This document shows positions 1-46,275 of a DNA stretch of 46,275 bases, piece after piece (position 1 is the first letter of the stretch; every line of letters begins with the position of its first letter). Made by a program: the position numbers and the translations under genes. The stretch comes from a virus (lineage: Duplodnaviria > Caudoviricetes): IMG/VR virus record IMGVR_UViG_3300006169_000027, positions 1 to 46,275 of that record; one strand, 5' to 3'. The notes beneath the pieces were generated by a model. That model ran no database searches. It saw only the letters and a list, made by a program, of their open reading frames with translations, and had not been told where the DNA came from.

Positions 1-87
1 CGCGGTATAGTACCACCGGCGCGGACGACCGACGTCATAATGCACGAATCCGGCATAAAGCGAAAGTCCGCCGTCTTGGATCTTCCC
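1..87 (+). repeat. Left copy of 87-bp terminal direct repeat (circular assembly overlap)
   Basis: Identical to 46189-46275. Confidence 0.97.
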
Positions 88-378
88 GGCTTTTATTAGT
101 TTCTTGATTTCCGCGTGTAGTTGTTTCGGCGTGAGTGTTGCCGCGACAATGTCGGCAGCTTTCGCGTTTAAGTGTTCGGAATTCTTCGCGCCTTTGACCT
201 TCTTGTTCCATGTAGGCGTTCGGTATCCGCTAAGGATCCGCAACGGTTGACCGATGTGATCACGGATCACTTGCAGATTCTTGACAAGTGTTTTCACGTT
301 GTCGATCTTGGATTCCGGAACCGGTGTTCCGTCCTTGCACATGAATTCCGACAAATAGAAATTTTTACTGAGTTTCAT
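1..378 (-). CDS. Endolysin, peptidase M15A family, 127 aa; continues across the join and ends at 46183-46188
   Basis: Manual translation MKLSKNFYLSEFMCKDG...ILSGYRTPTWNKKVKGAKNSEHLNAKAADI...GFVHYDVGRPRRWYYTAK*; SGYR, SxH-x6-D and FVHxD Zn-peptidase motifs; missing from the ORF track. Confidence 0.9.
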   Translation of the reverse strand, partial: MKLSKNFYLSEFMCKDGTPVPESKIDNVKTLVKNLQVIRDHIGQPLRILSGYRTPTWNKKVKGAKNSEHLNAKAADIVAATLTPKQLHAEIKKLIKAGKIQDGGLSLYAGFVHYDVGRPRRWYYTA

Positions 379-553
379 CGTGATATATTTTTAATAGGTG
401 ATTGACGAATTCGATGCCTTCACGACCATCGAACAAATTGTGAACTATGAACATTTCGCCATTCGGCACGATCACGACGCGCGGTCCACATGCACACGTC
501 GAATCGAAATCTTTATGCGGTTGAATATCATCAACCGGAACCACGCACCACAT
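365..553 (-). CDS. Small hypothetical protein in lysis cassette (H-x-CxC...HN-x-DGRE)
   Basis: 62-aa ORF packed between spanin and endolysin. Confidence 0.65.
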   Translation of the reverse strand: MWCVVPVDDIQPHKDFDSTCACGPRVVIVPNGEMFIVHNLFDGREGIEFVNHLLKIYHDETQ

Positions 554-556
554 AAA

Positions 557-1147
557 TCAAAATATTTTCGGGATCCGCCTGGAAAAGTACCACGCAAGCA
601 ATATCAAAACGATCGGGATCAACATGATCAAGGTCCGCTTGGTCAGTTGCTTCCCGAATTCCTTCGTCTGGATGATCAATTGCGATTGTGCGTCCCGCAA
701 TGCCGACTTGGTTCCATGTAGTTCCGCTTCCAAGGCGCGGGATCTGGATTGTTCCCGGTGCAATGAATCGCGCAACACATTCGTCGCACGGTGATCGATC
801 ACAATTTTTTCTTGGATGATCGTCCGGTCAATACATGGAAAGGTGTCGTAAATGACCGACACTTTCGATCCGGAATCGCAAAGGATCTTCCGCAAGGAAT
901 CGGCGTCCAATTCTTTCGCCACCGGCGCGCGTTCCGTGATGATCGTGTCGGAATTGAAAATTGTGTCGTTGAAACAAGGATTGAACCGCAACCATAGTCG
1001 TCCGACGTGATCGAACGCGGTGTCGTTGAATGTGACGGTTTTGACCGCCTTTTGAATGCGGCGTTGTGGATCGCATCCCGTAACGACAAGGACCGCGACC
1101 ATCATGATCGCGATCCATTTCATTCGGATAGCTGCACCGGTGATCAT
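557..1147 (-). CDS. Putative unimolecular spanin (lipoprotein with C-terminal TM helix)
   Basis: Start re-called to 1147 (ATGA overlap with upstream stop); lipobox VLVVTG-C; coiled-coil stretch; C-terminal TLIMLIPIVLILLAWYF. Confidence 0.7.
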   Translation of the reverse strand: MITGAAIRMKWIAIMMVAVLVVTGCDPQRRIQKAVKTVTFNDTAFDHVGRLWLRFNPCFNDTIFNSDTIITERAPVAKELDADSLRKILCDSGSKVSVIYDTFPCIDRTIIQEKIVIDHRATNVLRDSLHREQSRSRALEAELHGTKSALRDAQSQLIIQTKEFGKQLTKRTLIMLIPIVLILLAWYFSRRIPKIF

Positions 1148-1566
1148 CTTCGAATTGTTGTTGATCGTTTCGGTGCGTCCGGCGTCTTTAGTTGTTGAAC
1201 CGATATTTCGCCGGTCTTCAATTTCACATTCTTTCGCCGCACCAACCAAGAAAAGACGATTGGAGCAAGCGCGGTGACAAGACCTAGCCACATCGTTAAT
1301 TGTTCCGGCGAAAGCCTTCCCGCCGACACCAAGATCGAACCGATGGATCCGACAACGTGCCGGAGTGCGCCGCCAAGACTTTCTTCCGTGACTTCTTTTG
1401 CAATGAAGGACCAAACGATTGAGATCACCGAAAGGATCGCGCCGCCGATGATTTCCACGGTGTTCGAATCAAGCGGATTTCCGAACAAGGAAATGTTCTT
1501 TCCGATCAACCATCCGCCGACAAGCGTGAACACATATCGAAGGACCGTTTTCAATGTTTCATTCAT
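1144..1566 (-). CDS. Putative holin, multi-pass membrane protein
   Basis: About four hydrophobic segments, basic C-terminus, lysis context. Confidence 0.7.
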   Translation of the reverse strand: MNETLKTVLRYVFTLVGGWLIGKNISLFGNPLDSNTVEIIGGAILSVISIVWSFIAKEVTEESLGGALRHVVGSIGSILVSAGRLSPEQLTMWLGLVTALAPIVFSWLVRRKNVKLKTGEISVQQLKTPDAPKRSTTIRR

Positions 1567-1598
1567 GTTTCAAATTTTAAGGTGAAAAAAAAAATATT

Positions 1599-2015
1599 TC
1601 ATCGGTGATCGTCGCGACCACGCGAACGGATCTTGTCAATCTGCTTTTCCAAATCGTCGAACCGGTGTCCGACACGTTCATCGATGTCTTCGAAACGATC
1701 ATTCACGCGGTCGATCTTTCCTTCGATGGTTCCCATCCACCGGGATTGAGTGACGCGATATTCGTTTTCTGAATCGACGATCTTGCGGACTTCCGATTGA
1801 ACCGTCCTTTCCACTTGTTCCGCTTTTAGACTTGCGCTTCGCGCTTCATTCTTCGCTGAATTGATGTCGGCGGTGATCTTGTTGATCATCCAGATGATCA
1901 AAAAACCAATCACACCGATGATCACCGCACCGGTGATCAGATTTGCGATCCAGACGTTCCCGGTGTCCGCGACATCCGAATCGATTTGTTTTTGCAGTAG
2001 ATAAAACATGATCAA
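1599..2015 (-). CDS. Single-TM coiled-coil protein (holin/antiholin-like)
   Basis: One TM segment then coiled coil; start of lysis cassette. Confidence 0.55.
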   Translation of the reverse strand: MIMFYLLQKQIDSDVADTGNVWIANLITGAVIIGVIGFLIIWMINKITADINSAKNEARSASLKAEQVERTVQSEVRKIVDSENEYRVTQSRWMGTIEGKIDRVNDRFEDIDERVGHRFDDLEKQIDKIRSRGRDDHR

Positions 2016-2019
2016 GGTG

Positions 2020-2292
2020 TCAGGATTTTTTCTTCCGTTGCAATGAATCCGCCGCCGCTTTTTTATTCAACGAATCAAGCGTTTTCAATTGAAAGTTGAC
2101 TTGATCGACGATGAATTTTTTCGCGGCTTCGACCGTGGTGTGTGGCGCGTTGGATTGGTTGATCACTTGAACAACAATTTCCCAATCTTGGATAGTTCCA
2201 TTGACGGCGAAGACCGGCGTTTGTTGTGTAGGTGCTGACGCCTGGAACGCGGTGATCATTGCGACGATAGCGATGAACAAAAGTTTTTTCAT
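2020..2292 (-). CDS. Small helical protein with signal peptide, possible fibre-assembly chaperone
   Basis: MKKLLFIAIVAMITAFQASA N-terminus; short amphipathic helices; directly follows the fibre genes. Confidence 0.55.
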   Translation of the reverse strand: MKKLLFIAIVAMITAFQASAPTQQTPVFAVNGTIQDWEIVVQVINQSNAPHTTVEAAKKFIVDQVNFQLKTLDSLNKKAAADSLQRKKKS

Positions 2293-2319
2293 GATTTCCA
2301 TTTTTTCATTTTTAAAGTA

Positions 2320-4698
2320 TTAACGGCGCGGATTGACCGACATCCGTCGTTTCTTTTGCAATTTCGCATTATTCACGCGAAACTTCCACTTTCGCCATCC
2401 TTTCACATTTTCCGGTGTGGATCCACCGCCGCCGATCCAATCGGTGAAAGTTGGTGCGGTCGGAATCAATGCACAATTCGTCGTATAAGTGAAGTCTGAA
2501 AATTGCGGTTCGCCTTCGTGACGCGTACCGACACCCGCCGGCGAACCATCGAACAAGGTATTGTTGCAGATGATCGATGTGCCGCGATCAAAAGTGTTGT
2601 AAGTGTCATACCCCCAAACATGATTTCCGCCGACATTGATGCCGAACCGATTGCCCCAAACGTAGACGGTCGATGAATCCCATTCCGGACCGCGATCGTT
2701 CACCGATCCGAGTGGTCCCCACGTCGGACGGTTGTCCAAGAAGACGTTCGACGGATAGGATGCAACTTGTCCCGGATACATGCCCGGATTGATCCACCGT
2801 TCATCATTGTAAATATATCCCGTATATGCACCGGCGATCGAAGGAAAGCGCGGAAGGATCCCGGCGGAATCACCCCGGTTGTTATACATCCAATTTTTTT
2901 CCACGCCAAGACATCCGAATGAATAAAGAAACGTGCATGAAATATAGTTGTCGTGCATGTATGCGCGCGACGTCAATCCACCGATCCAAATTCCGGTTCC
3001 TTGTTGTTGGTTTTCTTCGTAACCGGCACGACGAACCACATTCCGCGCGATTTCCTGATATCCGGAATCTGCGCCGCCTAGCTGAATCGCCGAACGATTC
3101 GCGGAATCACAATACACGTTCAAGATCCGGATGTTCGAAAGACGCATTGGAATCAAATGGACCGACACGCCACGCGGAACGGCTCCCGAATATGGACGGG
3201 ATCCCGCGCGCGGTTTGCGTGCCGTTGTCTTCGTATTGACAAGCATGGAAGGAACATCGCCACCGTCCGGGATGAACACTTGCATCGTCGTCCGTTGTGC
3301 CTTACCATCGACCACGCGTGTCGCGCGGACGGTGCGAAGGCGTGAAGATCCGGAAAGCGTTGACGCGCATTCATACGTCCGATTCCCGACCGGATCCGTG
3401 TTCCCGGCATAGACGCCATCTTGAAAGATATTGTATGCGTGGACGTTCTGAATGGTGATGTGGTCCATGGACCATTTCGTCCAATTCAAGGAATCGCCCG
3501 CCGGCGGACATGCGGGATCCTGTTTGATCCAGGCGATGTATGTTTTTTTATAGACGCGAAAGTTTTCGATGATCACATATTTCGATCGACCGCCAACAAC
3601 GACCGCCGGTTGTTGCACGTCTTCCGTCGAATTCGATGCGTTGGTGTTGGTGATAAAGAATCCGTATGTCATCGATTCCGTGGACAATGTTTGATTGTTG
3701 AACGTCGGTTTCGTCACCGTGCCGGATCCGGGACCGGTTCCGGTCATCTTCACAAAATGACAATGTTCAAGATTGATTTGATCGCGGATCACCGGGATCC
3801 CGTTGTTGATGATCACGATCGGACATTGTTGCGTCCCGCGCAAATTGTAGATGTAGATATAATTCCATGTAGGATTTGCGCCGCCTAACGCCTGACGAAT
3901 TTCAATCGTGTCACCGGGAGCGTACAAAGATCCGTTGATGATCTGACCATTGTCACCCGCCGGCAAAAACGAATATTTTGTCCCGGCACATTGCGCGATC
4001 GTGATGGTGACGTCGTCCGTCGATGTAGACGCATTTGCCGCCGTCGTGGTGACACGAAAGACGTGGACGCCGACGGGAAGGTCCGTCACGGTCGTCGATG
4101 CCGAATTCGGGCTTGTAATGACGCCACCGGAGCCTTCAAGACGTGTCCATTGATAGCCGGTGATCGATGTGGATCCGGGCCACGAAAAGGATGCGTCTAG
4201 TGTGACGGTCTGACCTTGCGGTTTTGATTGGTCGCCGCCGGCGGATGCGTGCATCAAGTTCACGCCGGAAGTCGGGATGATCTGGATGAAGTCGACATTG
4301 AATCCGTCAGTCACACCGGACACGCGCATCGTGCGCGCGCCTGACGTGATGGATCCCGTGATCGCGGATGTCAACACATAGGTCGTCCATCCGCCGGTAT
4401 TATTGACGGTCGCCGTTCCAATCTGAACGCCATCGATGGACACGCCGACGGTCTTTCCGCCGAATCCAGACGCCACGCGCAAATAAATGTTGTATGACTG
4501 CGTCGAAGGAATTACAATCGGATATTCCATCCAATCGCCGGCGTCAATATAGCCGACGTTTTTACCGGCAGATGTGCCGGCGGTCGTTTCCACTTGCACG
4601 CCGATAGCGTCGGAATACGATTCCGCTTCGACGTGGATCATTTGTGCGTCCGCCTGGAAAATAGCAAGGAACGCCAAACATGACAAGATTTGTTTCAT
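2320..4698 (-). CDS. Signal peptide + CBM6-like + PKD + right-handed beta-helix protein (depolymerase/adhesin-like), 792 aa
   Basis: MKQILSCLAFLAIFQADA-Q; HVEAESY..NVGYIDAGDWMEY..TGGW..FNVDF (CBM6); ASAGGDQ..VTLDAS..YQW..DDVTITI (PKD); repeated beta-helix-like strands. Confidence 0.8.
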   Translation of the reverse strand: MKQILSCLAFLAIFQADAQMIHVEAESYSDAIGVQVETTAGTSAGKNVGYIDAGDWMEYPIVIPSTQSYNIYLRVASGFGGKTVGVSIDGVQIGTATVNNTGGWTTYVLTSAITGSITSGARTMRVSGVTDGFNVDFIQIIPTSGVNLMHASAGGDQSKPQGQTVTLDASFSWPGSTSITGYQWTRLEGSGGVITSPNSASTTVTDLPVGVHVFRVTTTAANASTSTDDVTITIAQCAGTKYSFLPAGDNGQIINGSLYAPGDTIEIRQALGGANPTWNYIYIYNLRGTQQCPIVIINNGIPVIRDQINLEHCHFVKMTGTGPGSGTVTKPTFNNQTLSTESMTYGFFITNTNASNSTEDVQQPAVVVGGRSKYVIIENFRVYKKTYIAWIKQDPACPPAGDSLNWTKWSMDHITIQNVHAYNIFQDGVYAGNTDPVGNRTYECASTLSGSSRLRTVRATRVVDGKAQRTTMQVFIPDGGDVPSMLVNTKTTARKPRAGSRPYSGAVPRGVSVHLIPMRLSNIRILNVYCDSANRSAIQLGGADSGYQEIARNVVRRAGYEENQQQGTGIWIGGLTSRAYMHDNYISCTFLYSFGCLGVEKNWMYNNRGDSAGILPRFPSIAGAYTGYIYNDERWINPGMYPGQVASYPSNVFLDNRPTWGPLGSVNDRGPEWDSSTVYVWGNRFGINVGGNHVWGYDTYNTFDRGTSIICNNTLFDGSPAGVGTRHEGEPQFSDFTYTTNCALIPTAPTFTDWIGGGGSTPENVKGWRKWKFRVNNAKLQKKRRMSVNPRR

Positions 4699-4716
4699 CG
4701 CTTTTCGCTTTTGATG

Positions 4717-5349
4717 TTAGTATGTGTAAGCATTGACGACCAAGGATCCGACGTCCATGGTGTGACCGGCGGTCCCGGTCTTGATGACCACATGTGTCGT
4801 CGCTTGCGCCACGATGCGACGTCCGCCGCCGGAAAAGGATCTTGTTTGATCGTTTGCCCACACGACCGCGCCGGTATATTCGAACAATGGTTGCGCCGTG
4901 GTTGATGCCGGATCGAATGTTTTGATTTCCACGTTCATCGTGCGTGACGTCACATTGTCGGATTGCACTTGTTTCATGATCACGATCGCGTCATCGGTGT
5001 CCGCACCGTCCGCGCCGCCCCATCCATAGCGATAATTCCAACCGTAATCCGACGCGCCGGCGTCGTATGTGGTTCCGCCATCATCCGACACCCGCATTTC
5101 GATGTCGGTCCATTGGTCCGTTCTGACGCCGTTCAACAGGATTTCAAATCGCTTGTAAGTGCCGGACCATGTCGAAAGCGGAATGACAATCGTGTCTTTA
5201 TTGGAAAGGTTGACGCGTGTGTGAACAACGACACCGGCGTTCGCTTCTTCAAGTTGCGGTCCCGAATTGACGACCATGAATCCAAGGAAAGTTTGTCCAG
5301 ACGATGTAAGTGCGAGTGTTAGCGCAAGAAGGAAAAAGATCTTTTTCAT
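4717..5349 (-). CDS. Signal-peptide-bearing fibre-tip-like beta protein
   Basis: MKKIFFLLALTLALTSSG-Q; YKRFEILLNGV..MRVSDDGGTTYD..DY pattern resembles phage fibre distal domains. Confidence 0.6.
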   Translation of the reverse strand: MKKIFFLLALTLALTSSGQTFLGFMVVNSGPQLEEANAGVVVHTRVNLSNKDTIVIPLSTWSGTYKRFEILLNGVRTDQWTDIEMRVSDDGGTTYDAGASDYGWNYRYGWGGADGADTDDAIVIMKQVQSDNVTSRTMNVEIKTFDPASTTAQPLFEYTGAVVWANDQTRSFSGGGRRIVAQATTHVVIKTGTAGHTMDVGSLVVNAYTY

Positions 5350-5373
5350 GTTGCTTTTTTTATTTGTTTAAAA

Positions 5374-6159
5374 TTACTTGAATTCGAAGATGATGATGAC
5401 ACCGGCGGTCCCTGCTCCACCGGCGCGCGCTTGGTTTGCGGTCGACAATGCACCGCCGCCGCCGCCACCGTAGCCGGTCGCCGCATTTCCTGCCGCCGCC
5501 GCCACCAATCCAAGACCACCCGCGCCTAAAACAGACGAACCGCCATTCCCGGAAGTGCCGACCGTGCCTGATATACGAATCCCGACGTCACCGGGTTCGC
5601 CGCCACGATTGACATCGCCGTTCGTGGATACCGTTCCACCCGCGCCGCCGGCAACACCCGCCGCCGTGGTTCCCGTTGCTTGAAATCCGCCGCCCGAACC
5701 ACCGGGAGCCGTGTATGTTGTTCCGCCGATGGTGATCGTGGTATTTCCGCCGTTGCCGCCATTGCTGCCCGTTGTTGTCCCGGCGGTTCCGGCTGCGCCG
5801 ATTGCGTATGTGTAAGACGTTGCCGATGAAATGCCGGTCAAGAATTTTTCCAGATACGAACCGGATCCGCCGCCACCCGCCGCCGCGACGGAACTATTCG
5901 CACCGGCAACGCCGCCACCGCCACCGCCACCGCCAACCATGCGGATCCAAATTTTTGTTGTCCCGGCGGTCGGAGTGTAGGATGTTCCAGATGTCAACAC
6001 ACGGATCCCGATGATTTGACCTTGCGCCGCCGCGATCGCGGACGTGTTGGTTGCGATCGTGGATTCATTCGCCGCCACGCGTGAAGGAATGTTCGATGAA
6101 TGTTGCGCGTGAATAACACTTGTTATCAACACACATAAAGCAAAAAAGACTTTTTTCAT
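5374..6159 (-). CDS. Signal-peptide-bearing glycine-rich tail fibre-like protein
   Basis: MKKVFFALCVLITSVIHA-Q; TSGTSYTPTAGT..VGGGGGGGG..GGGGSGSY..GAGTAGVIIIFEF, a typical phage Gly-rich domain. Confidence 0.75.
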   Translation of the reverse strand: MKKVFFALCVLITSVIHAQHSSNIPSRVAANESTIATNTSAIAAAQGQIIGIRVLTSGTSYTPTAGTTKIWIRMVGGGGGGGGVAGANSSVAAAGGGGSGSYLEKFLTGISSATSYTYAIGAAGTAGTTTGSNGGNGGNTTITIGGTTYTAPGGSGGGFQATGTTAAGVAGGAGGTVSTNGDVNRGGEPGDVGIRISGTVGTSGNGGSSVLGAGGLGLVAAAAGNAATGYGGGGGGALSTANQARAGGAGTAGVIIIFEFK

Positions 6160-6172
6160 ATTGCTTCAAATT

Positions 6173-9100
6173 TTAGTTGATGATTTTCCATGTGCCGCCT
6201 TGCGCGACGATGTGAAGGACCGAATTCGCCGGAATAGTCGTCAACGCATTATTCAACGCATTGACCGGTCGGTTCGATGCACCGAAATTCCACGCGGATC
6301 CGAATCCATTCCGGATGATGATTTCGCGTCCATCCTGACCGGTTGCCGATGCCATGGTGAACGTGTTGGTCCCTTCCGAAAGTTCGATGTAATGGTCGGT
6401 CGCTTGCAACGTGTAGTCCGCCGCCGGAATGGATTTCACCGCCAACCGGCGCGCGCCTTCCGTGGCGAAAAGTGTGGTGACAAGTCCAGATCCGCCGCCG
6501 TTGAACACGACACCCGGATTCCCGGTTCCATCGTTCAATTCAAATTGTCCGGTTCCGGCGTCGTTGTAAAGTGTCCCGATCGTGGTTCCGCTTTGCTGCA
6601 AATTGATCGCCGTGGTGAAGGTGTTGCCGATTGCAAGCGTTTGGGCAAGCGATTCGCCGCCACCGCTTCCGGCGTTGGAGTTGACGAAGACGCCGTTTTG
6701 ATAGGTCAAGACCTGACCGTTCGTCGGCGATGTAAGTGTCACGCCGACCGATTGTTGCCATCCTTTGACGCCGGTCGACGGATCGGTTCCGTAGACCTTC
6801 GCGTTTCCGGGTGCGGCGTCGTCGTTCAAAAGTTCAACCGTGCCGCCATTTTCGTCAAGTGACTTTTGGAATGTATATGTCGATCCGCCGCCGCTTGCAT
6901 TGATGACATACGGTGACGCGATCGTTCCGGAACCGGTGACGGTGACATTCGTGCCGGCGGAAATGTGACCGGTGATGTTTGCGATCTTGGCGTTCCATGT
7001 GGAAATATTTCCGGAAGTGATCCCGGACGCCGCCGATGCGGTGAAGATCGGATCCGTTTCCGCGCCGCCGGCGGAAGGTGCGACGTTGACGAAGATCCCG
7101 TTTTGATATTGCAAGATGTCGCCGTTCGCCGGATTGGTGAGTTGCATCGTTGCGGATTGCTGCCATCCTTTCGTTCCGGACGCGTTGGTTCCGTAGACGT
7201 AAGAATTTCCAGGCGATGCGGCATCGTTGTCAAGTGTGACGGAAGATCCGGAAAGGTTCAACGATTGGTCGAACGTGTAAGTCGATCCAGATCCCGACGA
7301 ATTGATCACATAAGGCGACGCGATCGTTCCCGCACCCGTGATCGTCACATTCGATCCGGCGGAAATGAATCCCGCGATCGATGCGATGTCGAAGGAATAA
7401 AGAACCGCCGTGTCTTGCGTGACACCGTTGAATGTTCCGGTTTGCGGCGATCGTGTCACGCTTAAACGTGAAGATCCTTGAAAGCCTTGCGCGATGCCGA
7501 CGGCGGTCGTGTCATCCGGGAAAAAGAATGTCGAATCGAATTGCACCGGCGACGTGACGACCGAGTTGCCGATGTAAAAAGACGAACCGCCGGCGGATGA
7601 AGATCCCGGCGTTGATGTGGCATCAAATGACATGCGACCATTTGCATCGACGATCACATTTCGCGTCGTGCCGGTTGTCGCCGGCGGCGTGCCGTCCGTG
7701 TCAAGCGATGTAAATACGTTGTAATCGGATGAAAATGTTGTCGGTGTTCCCGCTTTCGTCTGGAACAACAAACCTTTGTCCGCCGTGTATGCTGATATGA
7801 CGAATTGTTCGGTGATGGCGGATCCGATCGATTGCAGAAAATGGTATCCGGCTAATTCAACGAATTGGATCCCGTTGCCGGATCCGAACACCATGCCGAT
7901 CCCGTTGTTCGCATCGTATCGAAGGGAAAGGCGGTTTGAATTGGTCGTCGTGCGAATGGAGTTTCCGATCCGGATGTCACCATTCACTTCCATCGGATAA
8001 GTATTGTTAGCCGTGTTGACTTGAATGCGCGTGTCGGCGCGCAAGGATCCAGAAATCCAGGCGTCGGCGGTTTGTGCGGATGCGAATTGATTCTTGATTG
8101 CGGTCGGATCGCTTTCCGTGTAAGTAAGTGACAACGTCGGCGTCGTCGTGGCGTTGGTCACGGTTCCGGTGAATCCGTTGCCGTTGGTGAATCCGAACGA
8201 TGTGACGGATCCCGTGCCGCCGGTGTTGAAAAGTGGCATTTCGGTCCCGGCTGCATTCTTGAAGTATGGAAGACCGTCATTTTTGACATAATACACACCC
8301 GCCGGCGGTGTTCCCATGGTTCCGGTCGTCGTGTTGATGTAGTATGCGTTCCCGTAAAAAGCCTTTTGTGTTGCCACATTTTCGACGAATGTTTTTTCAC
8401 CGTTGACGGTTTGATCGCCGGTCAACTTCACCGCCGTCGGATCGGATTCCGATGTCAGGAAAGACGGCGCGTTCGTGATGTTGTTCCAATGAACGGACGC
8501 TTGTCCCGACGTTTGAAGATTCGTTTTCGTGTAGTAATTCGGCGCGGCAGCTATCCAAACCGGATCCGATTCGGAAGTGATGCCGGGAGCCGGACCGGTG
8601 ATGACGTAAGGCGATCCGCTTGTCCCGGATCCCGTGATCGTGATGTTCGATCCTTGCGTGACTAGACCGGTGATGTTTGACAATTTCGAATTCCACGTCG
8701 ATATATTTCCCGCCGTGATACCGGATGCGGCAGATGCGCCGAACACCGGATCGGATTCCGTTGACAACTTGTTGTTGAAGTTCGTCCAATCGGACGACGA
8801 CAACAATCCGCGATTCGATCCGGACGCCGTCGGGATGTTGAATGTATGGACGCCGGATCCCGCGTTTGTGGAAATATTGAAGTCTGTTCCCGCCGATCCC
8901 GTTTGAAATGATTGCGCCGACACCGTGGATCCATTCAGATCCGTAATTCCGCCGCCACCCGCGCCCGTTTGATCCGCCGCGTTGGTCCAGACCGTGCCGT
9001 TAAATTTCAAGACCTGACCATTTTGCGGATTGGACAACGACACGTCGGAAAGATTTGCAAGAAGTGTCACGCCGCCGGCGTTAGATCCCGCCGGGACTGC

Positions 9101-9367
9101 CCACCGGATCGAACCTTTCCAGAATACCAATGAATCGCCGCCGGCATTTTGATAAATGGTGTCAACCGCGAAGGCGAATTCCGTGGTCCCGTTCCACTTG
9201 TTTCGAAGGAATGCGCCGGTCCGCGATCGCGTTGAATTACGGATCAACAATTCAGCATTCCCGCCAACTTTTTCCAGGCGGATCGAATCGCCGCGAATCG
9301 GAACGATCGATTGTGCGTCGGCGAATAATGACATCACCGTCAACACGAAGACCAAGATTTTTTTCAT
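6173..9367 (-). CDS. Signal-peptide-bearing long tail fibre-like protein, 1064 aa, with internal repeats
   Basis: MKKILVFVLTVMSLFADA-Q; repeated ESDP, GSNVTITGxGTxxSPYVI, NGQVLxYxNG and DAAxPGN..YGT..KGWQQS units; position after tail tube. Confidence 0.8.
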   Translation of the reverse strand: MKKILVFVLTVMSLFADAQSIVPIRGDSIRLEKVGGNAELLIRNSTRSRTGAFLRNKWNGTTEFAFAVDTIYQNAGGDSLVFWKGSIRWAVPAGSNAGGVTLLANLSDVSLSNPQNGQVLKFNGTVWTNAADQTGAGGGGITDLNGSTVSAQSFQTGSAGTDFNISTNAGSGVHTFNIPTASGSNRGLLSSSDWTNFNNKLSTESDPVFGASAASGITAGNISTWNSKLSNITGLVTQGSNITITGSGTSGSPYVITGPAPGITSESDPVWIAAAPNYYTKTNLQTSGQASVHWNNITNAPSFLTSESDPTAVKLTGDQTVNGEKTFVENVATQKAFYGNAYYINTTTGTMGTPPAGVYYVKNDGLPYFKNAAGTEMPLFNTGGTGSVTSFGFTNGNGFTGTVTNATTTPTLSLTYTESDPTAIKNQFASAQTADAWISGSLRADTRIQVNTANNTYPMEVNGDIRIGNSIRTTTNSNRLSLRYDANNGIGMVFGSGNGIQFVELAGYHFLQSIGSAITEQFVISAYTADKGLLFQTKAGTPTTFSSDYNVFTSLDTDGTPPATTGTTRNVIVDANGRMSFDATSTPGSSSAGGSSFYIGNSVVTSPVQFDSTFFFPDDTTAVGIAQGFQGSSRLSVTRSPQTGTFNGVTQDTAVLYSFDIASIAGFISAGSNVTITGAGTIASPYVINSSGSGSTYTFDQSLNLSGSSVTLDNDAASPGNSYVYGTNASGTKGWQQSATMQLTNPANGDILQYQNGIFVNVAPSAGGAETDPIFTASAASGITSGNISTWNAKIANITGHISAGTNVTVTGSGTIASPYVINASGGGSTYTFQKSLDENGGTVELLNDDAAPGNAKVYGTDPSTGVKGWQQSVGVTLTSPTNGQVLTYQNGVFVNSNAGSGGGESLAQTLAIGNTFTTAINLQQSGTTIGTLYNDAGTGQFELNDGTGNPGVVFNGGGSGLVTTLFATEGARRLAVKSIPAADYTLQATDHYIELSEGTNTFTMASATGQDGREIIIRNGFGSAWNFGASNRPVNALNNALTTIPANSVLHIVAQGGTWKIIN

Positions 9368-9456: not shown

Positions 9457-10047
9457 TTACGCTTCGTAATCGAAACAACGATCGAAGATTCCGACCGGTG
9501 TGGCAAATGGTTCGGCAAGATCACCTTGCGACCAACGTGCCACCACGTTCCAAACGACTTCCGCGTTGATGTCTTCATCCACCGGATTCGATGGAAGGAT
9601 CGACACGGGATTGTCCGAAATGTGCGTCAGACGTTCGGTGCGGTATGCGATCGCATAATTGCGCGAATATTTGATCGCGTTGTAAAAAGCCGCGTTTCGT
9701 GCATAGTTCGGATCGAAGAATGTCAATTCGTGGTTGTATCCGGTCAAGCGCGTCGACTGATCACCGTATCCGGTTCCTTCTTGCGGATCGCCGCCGTTGT
9801 AGGATCCACGGACTTCCGGAATGATGATGATGTCTTTCGCTTCGATTCCGGTGCGCCACACTTGCGGATTGTCTGGATCACCTTGGAGCGTTGCCAAATA
9901 TGACTTCTTGATGAACGCCACGGAACGGATGCGTCCGTGTTCGATTTCTTCACATGGATCGCAAACGTGATCCGGAACGGCGACATCACATCCGCCGGGA
10001 TAATAAATCGCGTACAACATAAGTGTCGCGAGAAAATTTTGTTTCAT
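9457..10047 (-). CDS. Probable major tail tube protein
   Basis: 196 aa, beta-rich, follows neck/terminator-position genes, followed by a terminator. Confidence 0.55.
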   Translation of the reverse strand: MKQNFLATLMLYAIYYPGGCDVAVPDHVCDPCEEIEHGRIRSVAFIKKSYLATLQGDPDNPQVWRTGIEAKDIIIIPEVRGSYNGGDPQEGTGYGDQSTRLTGYNHELTFFDPNYARNAAFYNAIKYSRNYAIAYRTERLTHISDNPVSILPSNPVDEDINAEVVWNVVARWSQGDLAEPFATPVGIFDRCFDYEA

Positions 10048-19535: not shown

Positions 19536-20405
19536 TTACATTTTTTGTCTTCCAGAAAGTGAATTTCTTTTTGACTGCAAAGTGAATAAAAATTGCAAGC
19601 CAAGTTTGCGATGTGCCGTCGATGCGATCGAATTATACATCTTTTGCACGGATGGCGGCGCAAAGTTCCCGCCGCCGGAAAATATGAAATGGTCCTTGGT
19701 GATGATCTGTAAAGGCAACACGCGACCGCCGTGTTTTTGATGCCAGTAGGTCGGTTGCCAATTGAAGACGTGCGGTTCGGTCTTGGTGATAGCTGCCGCA
19801 ATGTTCAAGGCAAGTTCGTCCGGCATCCCGCCGTCCCAAACCATGAACGGGACTTTCGGTTTCCGGTACACTTCCAACGCCTTCTTGAAAAGTGCCGCCG
19901 TTGCTGCCGACTTTTCGAAATAAAACACTTCCGTCCGCCATTGATACATTCTTCCGGATCCGAGTTTGTACGCTTTTTTGATTTCCTTGTAATTCGCCCA
20001 CATCGGATAATGTTCATTTAAACGATTATCCTTCCCGTCCTGATCGATCCATCCTTCCGTAATGCCGGCGAATTTCTTGCCTTTCAACGCCTGGAACACG
20101 TCGGACGGTTGATGTTCCTTCATCCAAAGATTATCCGCGTCGATGACAAGTGTCGCTTCGAAGGGTGTGTGATCGTATGAAAGCAACTTCGCACCGGCTT
20201 TCATTTCGTCCGCTTCCGGGACATGGATGATCTTGTCGAAGACCTTCTTTTGACCATTATCCAGATGCGACAAGGCAACATCGCCGCCGGTCAGCACGGC
20301 GACCGGGAATTTCGGATCCGCCGCCTTTATGGTCACGGCTAGATTGTAGGCTAAACGACCATACATTGCATTTGCCACCGCGACAATTAAAATTCCTTGT
20401 TTCAT
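19536..20405 (-). CDS. GT-A fold glycosyltransferase
   Basis: GILIVA..Y...A..L..TIK; KL..Y..TPFEATLVIDAD (DxD); DELALNIA. Confidence 0.75.
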   Translation of the reverse strand: MKQGILIVAVANAMYGRLAYNLAVTIKAADPKFPVAVLTGGDVALSHLDNGQKKVFDKIIHVPEADEMKAGAKLLSYDHTPFEATLVIDADNLWMKEHQPSDVFQALKGKKFAGITEGWIDQDGKDNRLNEHYPMWANYKEIKKAYKLGSGRMYQWRTEVFYFEKSAATAALFKKALEVYRKPKVPFMVWDGGMPDELALNIAAAITKTEPHVFNWQPTYWHQKHGGRVLPLQIITKDHFIFSGGGNFAPPSVQKMYNSIASTAHRKLGLQFLFTLQSKRNSLSGRQKM

Positions 20406-20421: not shown

Positions 20422-21735
20422 TTAGTAAATGAATGACAGATTGTAAATGTTTAGCGGTGCGCCGAATTCGGACACGGAATCCGGTGATCCCATGAATGCG
20501 GTCATCGTGTACCACCATCCCGGCGACACGTTGAAAAGAAATTCTTCCGCCCACGGCGTGCCGGGAACGATGTCAAAATTGAACGGATACGCGCCGAACT
20601 GATTTCCTTGAAGGTTGATCACGCCTTGCACATTGATCGGTTCATTGAAGGTGACATTTTGTTGAATTTCCGCACGGACGATCAATTGTTCCTTGCCGCT
20701 TCCATCCGGCACGCCGGTCACGGTCACGACGACGGTCGCGTTGCCGGCATTGATCAAGATGGTCGGCGTCTTGAAATTCAAGATCAACGGCGACGAATCA
20801 CCGCCGTTCGCGCTGTTATTGGTGCAGCGCGAATAAAGTTTGAACCGGAAGTCCCTGCCGGCGGTCAACGCGTTGATCGTGATCGTTGGCGCGCCAACAA
20901 CGCCGGACGTGACAAGTGTTTCGATCTGATTGGACATCGAATAAAGTTCGAACCACCATCCGAAAGCCGGCGTAAATGCCGCCGACCAAGAAAAAATTGC
21001 GGCGATCGGCATCGGATCCGCCGGATCGAAGATCACTTCAATCGGACCGGTCGGAATCTGACACACCGCCGGACCGGTTCCGGTGATAGCTGCCGACACG
21101 CCGGCATCTTGCACCATGTCGCCGCACGCCACGCGATAGCGCAATATTTCGGACAATGCTTGCGACACGACGTTCGGTTGCAATGTGATCGTCAGGATGC
21201 CAAGTTGTGTGATTGCGGCGTTCGCGATGATCGCCGGATCGAATGACACGATCGAAAAGACGGGATTCGTGCAACAAAGCGAATCATTTGCCGCCACATT
21301 GATCAAATATGTTCCGCCTTGATCAAGCGGTTGAACGAAGGCGTCGTCAATTAGTTCCATTTGGTCCAGATCGTCGCACGTCGCACATGTTGAATTGTTC
21401 GCCTGGAAATCTTCGTCGAATGCTTTAAACTTCGCCGGTGCGACCGGGAATTCGCGGTCTTCGATCCAAGCGATTTCATAGGCTCCATTGATGCGGACCG
21501 GTCCCGTGAAGTTGTCGTTGTAAATGTTGACGATGTCGTGTCGAAGTGCGATCGTTAGGCGTTCATGGATCTTTTCCGGCATCCAATCGGTGCGACCTTC
21601 CATTTCCTTCGAAACGATGCTTTTTTGCACGCGCCGCGTTCCATCGGTGCGACGATAGATCGTTTCTTCGACCGGATATTGCGGACGGGAAAGATGAAAA
21701 GGCAACCGGATCTTGTTTTTAAATGGCATTGTCAC
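20422..21735 (-). CDS. Tail tip/minor structural protein with Ig/FN3-like domains
   Basis: Follows tail-tip genes; FSW..ELY..ALTAGRDFRFKLYSRC resembles FN3. Confidence 0.55.
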   Translation of the reverse strand: MTMPFKNKIRLPFHLSRPQYPVEETIYRRTDGTRRVQKSIVSKEMEGRTDWMPEKIHERLTIALRHDIVNIYNDNFTGPVRINGAYEIAWIEDREFPVAPAKFKAFDEDFQANNSTCATCDDLDQMELIDDAFVQPLDQGGTYLINVAANDSLCCTNPVFSIVSFDPAIIANAAITQLGILTITLQPNVVSQALSEILRYRVACGDMVQDAGVSAAITGTGPAVCQIPTGPIEVIFDPADPMPIAAIFSWSAAFTPAFGWWFELYSMSNQIETLVTSGVVGAPTITINALTAGRDFRFKLYSRCTNNSANGGDSSPLILNFKTPTILINAGNATVVVTVTGVPDGSGKEQLIVRAEIQQNVTFNEPINVQGVINLQGNQFGAYPFNFDIVPGTPWAEEFLFNVSPGWWYTMTAFMGSPDSVSEFGAPLNIYNLSFIY

Positions 21736-22526
21736 GAAATTTTAATGTAACCGGATGACGGTCCGCCGAGATCCACCGTGATCACGGTCGGCGGAACAGC
21801 GTCCATTCCGATCGAAAGAATTGTTTTTTCGAAAAGTCCCGTCGCGGGATTGTGAATAAAGACTTCCACGTCCGGTAAGTCGCCGTATTGATCGCGCATC
21901 GCTTGCGTGTACGGGATCGACAACACCGATTGATTGACGAACGGTTGCACGAAGTCGATGCAGTCATCCGCGCCGTCATTGATCGCGTCTTCGAAGTATC
22001 CGCAATAAATAAATCCGAAAGCATTTTTCGGACTTGCGAATTCGATGACGGATGTGAAACAATCTTCCGGGATCCGTTGAAAGCATGATGAAAGACCGGT
22101 CACGACGCCGGTCGACAATTGCGCGCGGACCATGAATTGAAAACATCCTTCCATCGCGATCGATTCGTCGAAGTCCGGCGCGCCATGGCTCCAATTGTAA
22201 AGAACCTTGTTTGATGCGATGCGGTATCGTTCCGGCTTTAGTCCAAGAAGTCCGGTGAAGTTGCGCGTGAAGTTGACGCCGTCGGTCGTGATGCCGACTT
22301 GAATTTTTGTGTGACCGATGTCACAAAGTTCATTCGCTTCTTGTTCCGTGTCGGTTTCGATAATGAATTGAAAGGCGACATCGTCTTCGTGGACGATCGG
22401 AAAGCAAAATTCGACGTCTGGAGATCCGCAACTATTTCCAGGCGGTTCCGCGTCGAATCGAACGAATGAATGTTCCGGTGTTAGTACGTTTGCCGACATT
22501 GAATCAATATTTGTTTCGTAATTCAA
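21732..22526 (-). CDS. Minor tail/structural protein
   Basis: Synteny; C-terminal domain paralogous to 29452-29697. Confidence 0.55.
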   Translation of the reverse strand: MNYETNIDSMSANVLTPEHSFVRFDAEPPGNSCGSPDVEFCFPIVHEDDVAFQFIIETDTEQEANELCDIGHTKIQVGITTDGVNFTRNFTGLLGLKPERYRIASNKVLYNWSHGAPDFDESIAMEGCFQFMVRAQLSTGVVTGLSSCFQRIPEDCFTSVIEFASPKNAFGFIYCGYFEDAINDGADDCIDFVQPFVNQSVLSIPYTQAMRDQYGDLPDVEVFIHNPATGLFEKTILSIGMDAVPPTVITVDLGGPSSGYIKIS

Positions 22527-24993
22527 ATACGGCGTGTTGATTGGCGATGTTATACTTCAAGGAAATTAAGAATCCGCGTCGGAAAGGTTCCCATGAGTTA
22601 CATCGATACAATATCAGGCCGTATGGGTTAGCACGAACACGATTAAATTGTTCGATACTCATTGGATATTCAAAAGTAACGATTTCCGGACGCATGATCG
22701 GACGCGCTTCATCCACGTTCAAGAAATCGTCAACGGACACGTCTTCCGATTCAGACAAGACGCCGCGTTCCATCTTGCAAATGTCCGAATATTGTTCGCC
22801 GGCGGCAACATAGTTGCCCGTCCCGGACATGAAGATCAACTTGCCGGTCGTGTGGTCCGGGAACATGCCGCCGATGGTCTTGAAATGGCGCATCAAGTTC
22901 CGAACCGGTGAGATCCGGAAATTGTATATCGATTCCGGATCGATGATGTTTTGATCGTTGTCAACATTGTCTTGTTCGACTTCAAACCGGACCGGCGCAT
23001 TGCTTGCGGTCACGGGACAGATCTTCACGGTGCGTCCCGTGGTCGTTTCCGGCGTGATCGCTTCCGCGACTTCCACACGCCACCGCGCCGCGCCGAATGG
23101 CGAATTGACCACATGCACCGCGACCACGGTGAAGATCCCGTCATTCGATCCCGTTCCCATTATTTCAATCTTATGTCCGGCAACGACGAAAGGCGTGTTC
23201 ACACGCGTCACGAAGGCGTTGAATCCGAATTGATCGGTGAAGGTGATCGGATAATTTAACGTCACACATGCGGTCCGGTGAATGCAGATGATGAAGGTGT
23301 CGTTGTCGAACTTAGTCACGGCTCCACCGGTTGCGGCGAAATTCTGGATCCTTGTTAATTCCAACGGATAGCCGCCGGCGATGAATTTGGAAATGATGTC
23401 TTTTGTTCCTTTCACATTGTTCATCGATGGACGGAATTCACGCGTCGAATTGAATTCATCCAACGAATTCACCGTTTCGGCTTCCCACTTGTCATAACCG
23501 ACGCGGATGATGTTGAAAAGTTCGTTCGTGGCGATCTTGATTTGCACATTGTTCACACCATCGGCGCGGAACATTTCGAAGTCTTGATAAAAGAAACGCA
23601 CATTTTCCAGGCGGACGAATTGGTCTTGATGGATGTCCATGCCGATGTTGTCGATCGCGCGAAGTGATTCCAAGGCGTCTTTCAATGAAAGAAAGAAGGA
23701 CGGGTTGTCCGCATTGCGGATCTTCAATCCAGACGTCAGCACGCGCAAACCGCCGCAACCGTCGTTTGGATAGCCAAGATCCGCGCGTCCATAGTAGTCG
23801 GACTTCAAGGTCAAGCATTTGTCGGAAATCGATTGGATGACGTGGTCAAGTGCTTCGTGAATGAAATGCACGTCCGACGGCGTTGGCGGACACTTAGAAT
23901 CGGCAGAAATATCAATAAAGGTTTCTTCATCGAATTCCGTGTCGAAGTATTCGAATCCAAGTGCGAACGTGTCGGTCCTTTCGATCTGCACGAACGCGAA
24001 GATCCCGCGATCCGGTTGCAAGTCGTATCCATTGACCACATTTGCGACATCGAATTCCACCGTCGCCGCGTATCCGTTAGAATTATCATTCACGGGAAGG
24101 TCGACGACGATGTCGGTCACTTGAATCGGATTGTGTGTTGTTTCTTCGCCTTCCGCAAGGACGATCCGGATGGTATAACGAAGGACAATGTTTGAACCAT
24201 ACATCGCGATGTTGACACGACCTTTCATCCGGTAGTTGATATTGAATCCGTCATTGAAACAAACGACCGTGTCTTCGAACATCAATTGCGGCGTGATCGC
24301 GTGGTTGTTGATGTTGTTGGCGGAATTCGAAATCGACCTTGACCACGAATAGGATGCGATCATGTTGCCGGTCTTTATGGCGTTGTAAAATTCGATCGCA
24401 TAATTCGGACGGACCTTGAAGACCATGTCTTGCCCGGATACAATGAACGCTTGTTGATATTCCGACATAAAGATCCGGTCGCCTTCCGGTGCGACTTGCC
24501 CGGACACCTGACGGATCAATGTTTTCGGCGGCAACATCAAGACGGACTTTTGCGGGACGATCGGTGTCGTTTGATCAAATGTTGTCGTTGCATCCAAGGA
24601 CACTTTTTGATCGAAACGGTTGTTGAACGTCTGGACACACGATTTCTGTTCGATGCCGATGGACACGGCACAATCGTCGCCACACGTTTCGGAATATCGC
24701 GCGAAGTCAAGCGAAAACATTTCATCGAAGATGATCTTGTCGTTGTCGTCCGAACATTCCGCCCACACGCGCAAGGACATCTTGCCATCGACGCCGCGCG
24801 CCTGGTATTCAGCTTTCACGAATTCGCCGGCATCCTTGTCGAAGGTGAGTTCATTCAGTCCGAAAATGATCGAAACGCCGTGCAATGTGGCGTCCCGTTT
24901 CGCTTCGAATTCCGCGTCCGTCCATCCGGTCAATTCATCGATGTCGCGCGTCACTTGGTCCGTGATCAATTGGAAAAACCACTTATTCGCCAT
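22504..24993 (-). CDS. Tail tip/hub protein, 829 aa
   Basis: Directly after the tape measure gene; beta-rich. Confidence 0.6.
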   Translation of the reverse strand: MANKWFFQLITDQVTRDIDELTGWTDAEFEAKRDATLHGVSIIFGLNELTFDKDAGEFVKAEYQARGVDGKMSLRVWAECSDDNDKIIFDEMFSLDFARYSETCGDDCAVSIGIEQKSCVQTFNNRFDQKVSLDATTTFDQTTPIVPQKSVLMLPPKTLIRQVSGQVAPEGDRIFMSEYQQAFIVSGQDMVFKVRPNYAIEFYNAIKTGNMIASYSWSRSISNSANNINNHAITPQLMFEDTVVCFNDGFNINYRMKGRVNIAMYGSNIVLRYTIRIVLAEGEETTHNPIQVTDIVVDLPVNDNSNGYAATVEFDVANVVNGYDLQPDRGIFAFVQIERTDTFALGFEYFDTEFDEETFIDISADSKCPPTPSDVHFIHEALDHVIQSISDKCLTLKSDYYGRADLGYPNDGCGGLRVLTSGLKIRNADNPSFFLSLKDALESLRAIDNIGMDIHQDQFVRLENVRFFYQDFEMFRADGVNNVQIKIATNELFNIIRVGYDKWEAETVNSLDEFNSTREFRPSMNNVKGTKDIISKFIAGGYPLELTRIQNFAATGGAVTKFDNDTFIICIHRTACVTLNYPITFTDQFGFNAFVTRVNTPFVVAGHKIEIMGTGSNDGIFTVVAVHVVNSPFGAARWRVEVAEAITPETTTGRTVKICPVTASNAPVRFEVEQDNVDNDQNIIDPESIYNFRISPVRNLMRHFKTIGGMFPDHTTGKLIFMSGTGNYVAAGEQYSDICKMERGVLSESEDVSVDDFLNVDEARPIMRPEIVTFEYPMSIEQFNRVRANPYGLILYRCNSWEPFRRGFLISLKYNIANQHAVFELRNKY

Positions 24994-27850: not shown

Positions 27851-28150
27851 GACGTTTTTGTTTTTTTAGTTGTTTAGATGCTTTGTCCGCGTCCTTCAAC
27901 GCTTCATTCAAAAGGAACCAATATTTCAAAAGTGGCATCGATTCAAGTTCGGCGATCGTCGTCGGGTTGTTTTTTGCAAGCCAAACTAATTCTACATAGC
28001 GACCTTCGTGCCGTTCGCCGACAATACGGACAAAACTTCTTTCAAATGGAGTTCGTTCACCATGTTGATCGTTGCGGAATAGGTGTGCAAATTGACCTTG
28101 TCCAATCCTAAGAATGGAATTAAATCCTTCAACGGCGTTTGCAAAAAAAA
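27831..28150 (-). CDS. Probable -1 frameshift extension (T part) of tail assembly chaperone
   Basis: ORF in -1 frame bridging chaperone and tape measure, ending ..AELESMPLLKYWFLLNE..; entry point uncertain. Confidence 0.4.
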
Positions 28151-28603
28151 ACCCAAGGCGTCCGGATCCGCTTTCCACCGTTGGACCTTGGCGTCGCAAT
28201 ACTTCCGGTCAAGCGAATACGGGTTTTCGGTGTCATCAAAAAAGACGACCGCCGCAAGGCGGAAGACGTGGTCCGGAACCGGAAGGAATGTCAACCGTTC
28301 CTTCAAGTTTTTGACAAGTGTCGCCATCGTGATCAAGTCCAACTTCCCGGATCCCGGATTCAAGATCTTTTCCATGGCGTTGCAATGCGCGATCAAGAAG
28401 TCCTTGGTGACGCGCATGTTGAATTCATCGTAAAGATCCAAGGCGTGCAGACCGCGCGACGTTGGCATCTTCAAGATGTCGTCAAACATGTAGTAAGTGA
28501 CGCCGTTGTGAACGAACGCTTCCCGTATGCGGTCTTTATGCACCGGCTGCAATAGTCCTTTGAACTTCTTGCGTGTCTTGAATAAATTTTTCAAAAATTC
28601 CAT
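27992..28603 (-). CDS. Probable tail assembly chaperone (G part)
   Basis: Helical ~203-aa protein two ORFs before the tape measure gene. Confidence 0.5.
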   Translation of the reverse strand: MEFLKNLFKTRKKFKGLLQPVHKDRIREAFVHNGVTYYMFDDILKMPTSRGLHALDLYDEFNMRVTKDFLIAHCNAMEKILNPGSGKLDLITMATLVKNLKERLTFLPVPDHVFRLAAVVFFDDTENPYSLDRKYCDAKVQRWKADPDALGFFLQTPLKDLIPFLGLDKVNLHTYSATINMVNELHLKEVLSVLSANGTKVAM

Positions 28604-29146: not shown

Positions 29147-29149
29147 TTG

Positions 29150-29455
29150 TTATTCCGAATGTTTGTAATCCAGACGCTTCCGGACTTGGTGAATGGAATC
29201 GATGACGCGTGTCCACCTTGCCGCGCGGATCCGGGATCCGTCACGGATAGCGATTCGGCGTTCATTTAGTGCATTTTCGAAGGCGGCGGCGCGGACGATG
29301 GAATCTTCACGCGCGCCGTCGATCGCCAAAATTTGACCGCTTTCCGCTTGCGTGACGGTCGTTTTTGCTTCATAGCACGACCGGAGCGTGACCGCAACGA
29401 CCACACCACACAAAAACACGATGAAATAAAAGAACATTTTTCGATTCATGATCAT
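29150..29455 (-). CDS. N-terminal membrane-anchored hypothetical protein
   Basis: FFYFIVFLCGVVVAVTLRSC. Confidence 0.6.
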   Translation of the reverse strand: MIMNRKMFFYFIVFLCGVVVAVTLRSCYEAKTTVTQAESGQILAIDGAREDSIVRAAAFENALNERRIAIRDGSRIRAARWTRVIDSIHQVRKRLDYKHSE

Positions 29456-29697
29456 GAAATTTTAAGGTATCCGGACGCACGTCCGCCGTGGTCGATGGTG
29501 ATTTTCTGCAATGGCATCCCGGTCAAGGTGACGGCGACGTTCACTTTTTCGAATCCGGGTGCGTCCGCTTTGCGGTGAAATACCGTCACGTTCGGGACAT
29601 TGCAAAACATCTTCCGCATCGTTTCGTCGATCAATATGACGGTGCGTTCCGCTTGGTTAAATGATTGGATGTGTGAGTTGCAAGACATAAATGACAT
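29452..29697 (-). CDS. Small beta protein paralogous to the C-terminus of 21732-22526
   Basis: ITIDHGGRASGYLKIS vs ITVDLGGPSSGYIKIS. Confidence 0.7.
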   Translation of the reverse strand: MSFMSCNSHIQSFNQAERTVILIDETMRKMFCNVPNVTVFHRKADAPGFEKVNVAVTLTGMPLQKITIDHGGRASGYLKIS

Positions 29698-30078
29698 TTA
29701 AGCGAAAGGAATGCCGATGATTTGTTCTTGAACGCCGGCGGCGTCGTCGATGCAATACACGATCGCGGCGGCGTGCGTGGAAATGAATTGGACCGGCAAA
29801 GGATCCGCGTTCATCCATTCGCGAAATTCCAATTGGAAGGATCTTCCCGGATAAAAGAATCCAGGCGGCAACGTGTCAGAAAAGTCGATCGCGTGTTCGG
29901 TGATCGCGGGATCGTATGCGAACGCCTTGGTCCATGCGGATCCACCTTCCCGGATGACGGCGAAGATCTGACCGGCGGCACGTCCGGGAAGGCGCATATT
30001 TACTTTGACAATGCGCGATTCGGCATCGTCAACGACCATTTGTGCGGGATACGATGCGCCGTGTGAAATGTGTTCCAT
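29698..30078 (-). CDS. Hypothetical (possibly structural) protein
   Basis: 126 aa, first gene after terminator/promoter. Confidence 0.6.
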   Translation of the reverse strand: MEHISHGASYPAQMVVDDAESRIVKVNMRLPGRAAGQIFAVIREGGSAWTKAFAYDPAITEHAIDFSDTLPPGFFYPGRSFQLEFREWMNADPLPVQFISTHAAAIVYCIDDAAGVQEQIIGIPFA

Positions 30079-33345: not shown

Positions 33346-33347
33346 GG

Positions 33348-36955: not shown

Positions 36956-36957
36956 GT

Positions 36958-46188: not shown

Positions 46189-46275
46189 CGCGGTATAGTA
46201 CCACCGGCGCGGACGACCGACGTCATAATGCACGAATCCGGCATAAAGCGAAAGTCCGCCGTCTTGGATCTTCCC
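46189..46275 (+). repeat. Right copy of 87-bp terminal direct repeat
   Basis: Identical to 1-87; lies inside the endolysin ORF. Confidence 0.97.

Follow-up and report, generated by a model that had tools for sequence, protein, structure and literature searches.

The DNA analysed here, referred to as the window, is the whole of IMG/VR virus record IMGVR_UViG_3300006169_000027, 46,275 bases from a tailed phage. Five consecutive open reading frames (ORFs) on its minus strand (2020–9367) lie between a gene with a tail tube fold and the lysis genes, and each begins with a Sec-type leader, as the preliminary description of this DNA had stated. The first encodes a fibre of 1064 amino acids (aa), and proteins of 261, 210, 792 and 90 aa follow (Table 1). 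All five leaders have a basic n-region, a small residue at −1 and an 8-residue core with a mean hydropathy of 2.8–3.4, judged by sequence and heuristic. The glutamine at +1 that had been described for the block is present in four of the five, with Ala or Gly followed by Gln at positions 18/19, but is missing from the 90-aa protein. The mature parts contain no 19-residue window with a hydropathy above 1.4, and thus no membrane anchor.

Table 1. Features of the five-gene block, its tail partners and the lysis region in the window.
Position	Strand	Feature	Basis or remark
6173..9367	-	Primary fibre of 1064 aa with a leader, the conserved mature N-module, a repeat-rich shaft and a variable tip	Module E 2e-19; internal repeats
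9314..9367	-	18-residue leader of the primary fibre, Sec/signal peptidase I (SPI) type, predicted cut before Gln19	Sequence and heuristic
9080..9313	-	Mature N-module (residues 19-96)	Invariant Asp27 heads an O-glycosylation sequon; residues 19-27 and 32-36 form the predicted docking surface
5374..6159	-	261-aa Gly-rich protein of fibre-tip type, leader and Gln	Gly_rich_2 (PF21722); phrog_863, phrog_6202, phrog_454, phrog_12796 (four PHROG tail families)
4717..5349	-	210-aa protein, leader and Gln	Resembles C-terminal part of a relative's fibre
2320..4698	-	792-aa protein, leader and Gln, CBM6, PKD, body without assigned family, basic C-terminus	
2020..2292	-	Leader-bearing 90-aa protein (MKKLLF start) without Gln at +1	A start at the 2301 ATG would give 93 aa (2020-2301)
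9457..10047	-	Likely tail tube protein (196 aa), upstream neighbour of the five-gene block	Weak fold matches to tail structures, and position
21732..22496	-	254-aa leaderless gene in tail-tip block; last ~78 residues (21732-21965) are D80	Adjoins 829-aa phrog_15220 virion structural protein
29452..29697	-	81-aa leaderless stand-alone D80 copy	E 5e-28 to a profile that includes it
29698..30078	-	126-aa gene; gene at this place in relatives often fused to D80	Homology of the window's gene to that family weak and indirect
1..2009	-	Lysis genes	
1599..2009	-	Membrane protein in lysis genes	
1144..1566	-	Holin	PHROG/Pfam scans
557..1123	-	Lipoprotein, putatively spanin-like	Lipoprotein leader; 5 sequons against 0.8 expected
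1..378	-	Presumed endolysin	Family label assumed

Leaders were called with a fixed heuristic of our own, not with SignalP. Among the 61 genes of the window it finds 4 proteins of the SPI type with Gln at +1 (SPI-Q), all of them inside the five-gene block, whereas among 505 head and neck genes of at least 140 aa upstream of the tube gene in relatives it finds 1, together with 15 in its SP/TM class and 1 lipoprotein-like. The starts of the window genes were set by hand, as the automatic caller had mis-started some genes, including two in the window. A start at a downstream Met, which the preliminary description had considered, is disfavoured by the initiation context: of the 21 bases before the start, 10–15 are A for the leader ATGs and 1–9 for the next in-frame Met codons, and the A-rich context is that of the other structural genes, which the downstream Mets mostly do not share.

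The mature parts look like fibre proteins. The 1064-aa protein, described earlier as a repeat-rich fibre, does have internal repeats and a match to the tail fibre family phrog_9729, spanning 46 residues; the Gly-rich fibre label of the 261-aa protein is borne out by its family matches; and CBM6 and PKD domains were found in the 792-aa protein, although the beta-helix also attributed to it was not detected in the family scan. The 210-aa protein aligns with residues 905–1019 of the fibre of one relative (L003; phmmer E 8e-9), and its nearest Atlas clusters are viral, with a recognition below the tool's mark. The ‘chaperone-like’ label of the 90-aa protein was not confirmed: it has a leader-bearing look-alike in one relative (L288; E 2e-4 in a small set) and no usable match in the ESM Atlas. 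In the circular genome, Gly/Ser/Thr-rich ORFs of at least 170 aa comprise the 1064-, 792-, 261- and 210-aa genes and, apart from these, just an acidic 192-aa gene of the head block. On these sequence grounds the five-gene block holds the only fibre-like genes of the genome, and in the complete relative G011 the leader-bearing block genes are again the only ones. Export by the type IX secretion system (T9SS) was rejected, since no Pfam or NCBIfam match to its C-terminal domain was found in the five proteins or in 100 proteins of relatives. Autotransporter export was likewise rejected in view of the lack of an anchor domain and of a hydrophobic segment; no C-terminal membrane-anchor family of the trimeric autotransporter kind was matched, and the scanned relatives gave only a single YadA head repeat. 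In accessory proteins with a leader the C-terminus is often a short basic tail (window 2320–2400; second genes of L008, L016, L001 and L288), which might be an attachment signal.

Relatives were collected through the gene that precedes the block. This 196-aa gene has no family match in Pfam/PHROG-type library scans; the model of its product (predicted local distance difference test, pLDDT, 90.8) has a best Foldseek E of 0.003, and none at E ≤ 0.001, with top rows mostly from phage and injection-system tail structures, making it a likely tail tube protein. A tube-gene alignment fetched 176 loci, reduced with the window to 103 after dereplication. The tree leaves out one short tube row and 24 loci whose flanks were short; its ‘noSP’ label is wrong for L028 and unsure for L139, and no count of origins was taken from it. 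In 34 of the 39 relatives with a tube identity of at least 50% and enough flank, the first gene after the tube gene carries a leader, Gln and a shared mature module. The other five comprise one with a leader-bearing fibre in second place, two with a short leader-bearing gene and two that start without a leader. Among 57 more distant relatives, 2 have the module, 11 another leader-bearing fibre and 30 none by the heuristic, while 14 were too short. The length of the leader is kept, at 15–19 residues in nearly all, while its sequence diverges. In the mature numbering there is no variation at Asp9 of the module (Asp27 of the precursor) and very little at Arg7, Lys15, Gly18 and Gly42. In four relatives (L033–L035, L054) two tandem tube-like genes are followed by a leaderless fibre.

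A profile of the module yielded 1316 representatives at 50% clustering. Among the best 150 of these, the heuristic accepts 113 as SPI-Q and 3 as SP/TM; in the other 34 the leader ahead of the module is shortened or extended, and one of them has just two residues there and is not judgeable. Gln stands at +1 in 142 of the 150. Five loci with short public start calls have an upstream MKK or MKR start in the DNA. Behind the module the bodies vary: in 100 proteins scanned we found SGNH esterases, pectate-lyase folds, BNR and lectin domains, and S74 chaperones (L008, L011 and P0222). A constant N-terminal anchor with a variable host-recognition body is, as read from these sequences, the plan of a receptor-binding fibre.

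A second line of evidence comes from glycosylation motifs. In Bacteroidota, D-(S/T)-hydrophobic motifs are O-glycosylated on non-cytoplasmic proteins, according to the available text of PMC12871550. We counted D-(S/T)-(A/L/V/I/M/T) and took the expectation from shuffles. Fifty leader-bearing post-tube proteins have 318 sequons against 104 expected (3.05x), whereas 44 leaderless post-tube proteins have 68 against 64 and 540 upstream proteins 378 against 450; 18 lipoproteins have 49 against 10. Four control motifs in the leader-bearing class occur at 0.6–1.2 of chance. With L074, L075, L028 and L166 removed from the leaderless set, the median ratio per protein is 2.7 for leader-bearing and 0.99 for leaderless proteins (p=1.7e-5), although p-values for sequons are overstated here, as the sequences are kin. 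The excess extends past the module (1001 against 530 in 132 proteins), and a sequon lies near the module start in 148 of the 150 best representatives.

Taken together, the conserved length of a leader whose sequence has diverged, and a family-wide sequon excess that the leaderless counterparts do not share, support the export of the leader-bearing proteins, which we regard as nearly certain. In this respect the earlier reading of the leaders as export signals is well supported.

The remaining question is where the exported fibre goes, and here a leaderless domain encoded among the tail genes, D80, is informative. The window has it twice, at the end of the 254-aa tail-tip gene (model pLDDT 68) and as a stand-alone copy. 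Across 50 virus records, D80 occurs in 16 of the 17 with the module, the exception being a 45% fragment, and in 0 of the 33 without it; the profiles for module and D80 were built partly from the same, related genomes. The close relative L165/G017 (78% complete), which shares a starred three-row branch of the tree with the window, has neither module nor D80. As an independent check outside the training set, the host-genome search returned four phage-like stretches in which a gene ending in D80 directly precedes the module gene. Their head genes are different ones: the first stretch has a phrog_6547 portal and a phrog_6681 terminase, the second a tape measure, the third a similar layout, and the fourth adjoins an integrase and lysis-like genes. 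Profiles of the tube protein, module and D80 matched no solved structure by sequence, and three weak 27-residue lectin matches in that search were dismissed.

A complex predicted from three copies of the module and three of D80 scored 0.87, against 0.29 for the best of three controls. Of 157 solved pairs 116 attain this docking mark, as do 2 of 215 mismatched ones, figures that are only roughly valid here. Three runs scored 0.87, 0.89 and 0.42, with a contact agreement between runs of at least 0%; the pLDDT was at least 75 for the partner and 51–71 for the module, whose three copies were imposed. The predicted interface is formed by mature residues 1–9 and 14–18, the part of the module that lies beside the cut and is most conserved. 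The model supports, as a prediction, binding of D80 to the first mature residues of the module. In several relatives (L026, L029, L032, L037, L163, L036/L039, L165, L146, L158) and in phage phi10:1 (gp090), a leaderless gene of 66–224 aa stands directly before a leader-bearing fibre with another N-terminus; in relatives without module or D80, such genes are candidate alternative sockets.

Leader-bearing proteins have also been found in virions. Cellulophaga phages phi10:1 (gp091–094; KC821618) and phi18:3 (gp085–087; KC821620) have consecutive genes, all seven with leader and Gln, whose products are annotated as structural proteins detected by tandem mass spectrometry (MS/MS); gp091–094 sit between tail and lysis genes, as does the block of the window. 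The notes shown in the GenBank records do not mention leaders.

We consider it probable that the fibres are exported to the periplasm and docked onto the tail at lysis. The five products would pass through Sec into the periplasm and be trimmed and glycosylated there; the main fibre would be cut before Gln19, leaving a pyroglutamate end, and would form trimers. The 254-aa carrier of D80 would be part of the virion, and the freshly exposed first residues of the main fibre would plug into this leaderless domain on the tail once the compartments mix, be it when the holin has opened the inner membrane or following lysis. The weakest step concerns the four smaller products, which are probably either attached to the main fibre or set free: a profile search found no N-module in them, and no docking route was found for them. 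The preliminary description had left two alternatives, addition to virions and display on the cell. For the 1064-aa fibre the evidence now favours addition to the virion, because a leaderless docking partner is predicted among the tail genes, because D80 and the module co-occur and because leader-bearing proteins were detected in Cellulophaga virions; display is still to be considered, since hosts use the same mature module.

That module is present in 26 of 401 Chitinophagaceae genomes, in up to ten copies each and often in tandem arrays, and these form the principal body of evidence weighing on the other side. When 20 of the host regions were opened, 19 were not phage-like by reading; in these, fibre-like genes stand in tandem next to SusC/D-like genes, or next to very large genes of secreted appearance that have DUF928 as a neighbour. 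D80 had no match in 21 of the 26 genomes, and in the other five it lies in one already known bin and in the four phage-like stretches. The host arrays (L259–L276, L278; for example G436:C1:5022280-5026594, G266:C38 and G153:C41) comprise 1–5 fibre-like genes with leaders, whose N-module is a Cys-bearing form of the one in the phage, and many adjoin a gene of 1500–2500 aa, a gene of about 800 aa and a DUF928 gene. From their sequences, they could be a cellular secreted-fibre system. The same side of the balance holds several smaller observations. The run that scored 0.42 has a different interface, and in the four outside stretches Lys15, which belongs to the predicted interface, is not conserved. 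The window's own five proteins have 13 sequons against 8.2 (p=0.06), with none in the 261-aa protein; the complete relative G002 has, in addition, a leaderless Gly-rich gene of 288 aa, to which BLASTP gave no alignment with the 261-aa protein; and CheckV estimates the completeness of the window at 73% despite its terminal repeat. The Cellulophaga proteins have no homology to those of the window, no N-module or D80 match and no sequon excess, and could co-purify with the virions.

The module thus functions in cells without a detected D80, which makes surface display a real rival. Using the host's own route for module fibres, the infected or lysogenic cell might display the exported proteins on its surface or shed them, for receptor masking, capsule remodelling or superinfection exclusion; adsorption of the virion would then fall to a tail-tip protein without a leader, for example the 435-aa or 829-aa product. 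The host proteins share not only the module but also the leader with Gln and a high sequon count (290 against 86.5), the Bdellovibrio MAT fibres, S74-type proteins with a conserved domain right after the signal peptide, are surface-displayed (available text of PMC10769870), and the complete relatives G002 and G011 have integrase-like genes, as read from sequence. Yet integrase and resolvase families have no match in the window, no anchor or T9SS domain was found in the proteins, the genes occupy the fibre position in the late operon, where other relatives have leaderless fibres, and D80 accompanies the module in phage-like contexts only. Host copies also mostly lack the loop of the predicted interface: Lys15 is present in 0 of 43 and Gly18 in 3 of 43, with Cys instead in 37, against 45 and 44 of 48 phage copies (three host rows were skipped), a contrast weakened by the four outside phage-like copies, which are also without Lys15. 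On balance we regard display as unlikely, though the strongest of the competitors. Somewhat less probable again is that the proteins pool in the periplasm and are freed at lysis, opening a path for progeny as depolymerases, esterases or decoys. Such a role would suit the four accessory proteins, which have no docking module, better than the main fibre, and it fits the second genes of relatives, which resemble captured host enzymes with PKD, CBM6 or beta-helix domains, as well as the lack of a membrane anchor; but a free enzyme would not need a constant N-module and a matching tail domain, and the 261-aa and 210-aa proteins resemble fibre-tip domains.

A further proposal, that the leaders are relics of host-gene capture or products of wrong starts and that the fibres assemble in the cytoplasm as usual, seems to us very improbable. 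The module and several bodies do have host counterparts, and public gene calls often begin inside the leader. However, the leader keeps its length and its Gln while its sequence drifts; the better initiation context belongs to the leader ATG; and the sequon excess extends past the module and is absent in leaderless counterparts.

The window ends in a direct repeat of 87 bases (46189..46275 equal to 1–87), by which the contig circularises. All assigned genes lie on the minus strand, in the order terminase, likely tape measure (955 aa), virion structural protein (829 aa, phrog_15220), 254-aa and 435-aa genes, likely portal, scaffold, likely capsid, neck genes, 196-aa gene, five-gene block and lysis genes; labels of genes without a family match were inferred from order and size. 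The block of tape measure and tail-tip genes (20422–30078) thus lies between terminase and portal, remote from the tube gene, an unusual order that is kept in relatives. Between the portal and the tail-tip genes stands a gene of 289 aa (19536–20405) that is conserved in 18 of 20 relative regions. It has no Pfam, PHROG or NCBIfam match, looks glycosyltransferase-like and could modify virion proteins. Pfam/PHROG-type scans identify a papain-family peptidase (32629–33435), a QueF/GTP-cyclohydrolase-like gene (36189–36986) and a DNA methyltransferase (37683–38630). In G011 (L012:57-5550) and G002 (L002:497-5064) a cluster of glycosyl- and methyltransferase-like genes, as read from sequence, lies on the opposite strand within the head block; the window does not have it. 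A scan of the window for promoters and terminators gave chance levels. Single-protein searches of viral contigs and annotated phages gave almost no matches and no isolated relative. Of 8 loci with relatives of the 196-aa gene, 5 belong to genome bins that carry the names Taibaiella, Chitinophagaceae or Chitinophaga, which makes a member of the Chitinophagaceae the likely host.

Tailed phages are taken to complete their assembly in the cytoplasm before lysis, and the preliminary description had set the block against the rule that fibres are made and attached there without a leader; in the window the leaders are present. Export of the fibre followed by docking at lysis is not described in the open-licence papers and preprints searched, nor in the available parts of PMC6199706, PMC5723332, PMC12386605 and PMC13288928. 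In its broadest form, the proposal is that tailed phages of Bacteroidota, as a widespread class, assemble their particles in two compartments, with a head and tail carrying the D80 socket made in the cytoplasm and exported, glycosylated fibres with pyroglutamate ends that snap in at lysis. Removal of the leader would expose the plug, the plug–socket pair would move between unrelated phage architectures, and the plug, being common to host secreted fibre arrays, would belong to an adhesin pool held jointly by phages and hosts. We judge this general scheme to have a slightly better than even chance of being correct. If it is, a fibre that crosses the inner membrane adds a compartment and a final step to morphogenesis, and host export, glutaminyl cyclase and O-glycosylation join the phage life cycle, placing host glycans on the particle. 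With a named plug (mature residues 1–18) and socket (the 78-aa D80), the idea is directly testable with two small proteins.

Among known systems, the pIII protein of filamentous phages is a receptor-binding virion protein with a Sec leader, membrane-anchored and added during extrusion; the proteins of the window have no anchor, and their phage is tailed and lytic. Substrates of the Bacteroidota Sec/SPI Q-rule and of O-glycosylation have the same leader, the same Gln at +1 and the same D-S/T-hydrophobic sequons (available text of PMC5837995 and PMC12871550), but those considered here, unlike the usual ones, are phage proteins at the fibre position. Prophages of Porphyromonas gingivalis carry five genes with Q-rule signal peptides, given as of unknown function and interpreted as modifiers of the host outer membrane, with no link to fibres or virions in the available text of PMC10367356. 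In the hub of PhicrAss001 (gp38/gp39 with gp22), three chains take the first residues (1–26) of a trimeric fibre, much as in the predicted docking, although PhicrAss001 is a podophage for which no homology was detected, its two partners presumably both stay in the cytoplasm, and the term ‘signal peptide’ is absent from the main text of the paper as far as it was available (PMC10172136). The Bdellovibrio MAT fibres combine a signal peptide, a conserved domain directly after it, mosaic adhesive bodies and S74 chaperones (available text of PMC10769870). They are encoded by the cell and displayed on its surface, so that, compared by description, the host arrays are their closer analogue, whereas the phage copies have a predicted partner in the tail.

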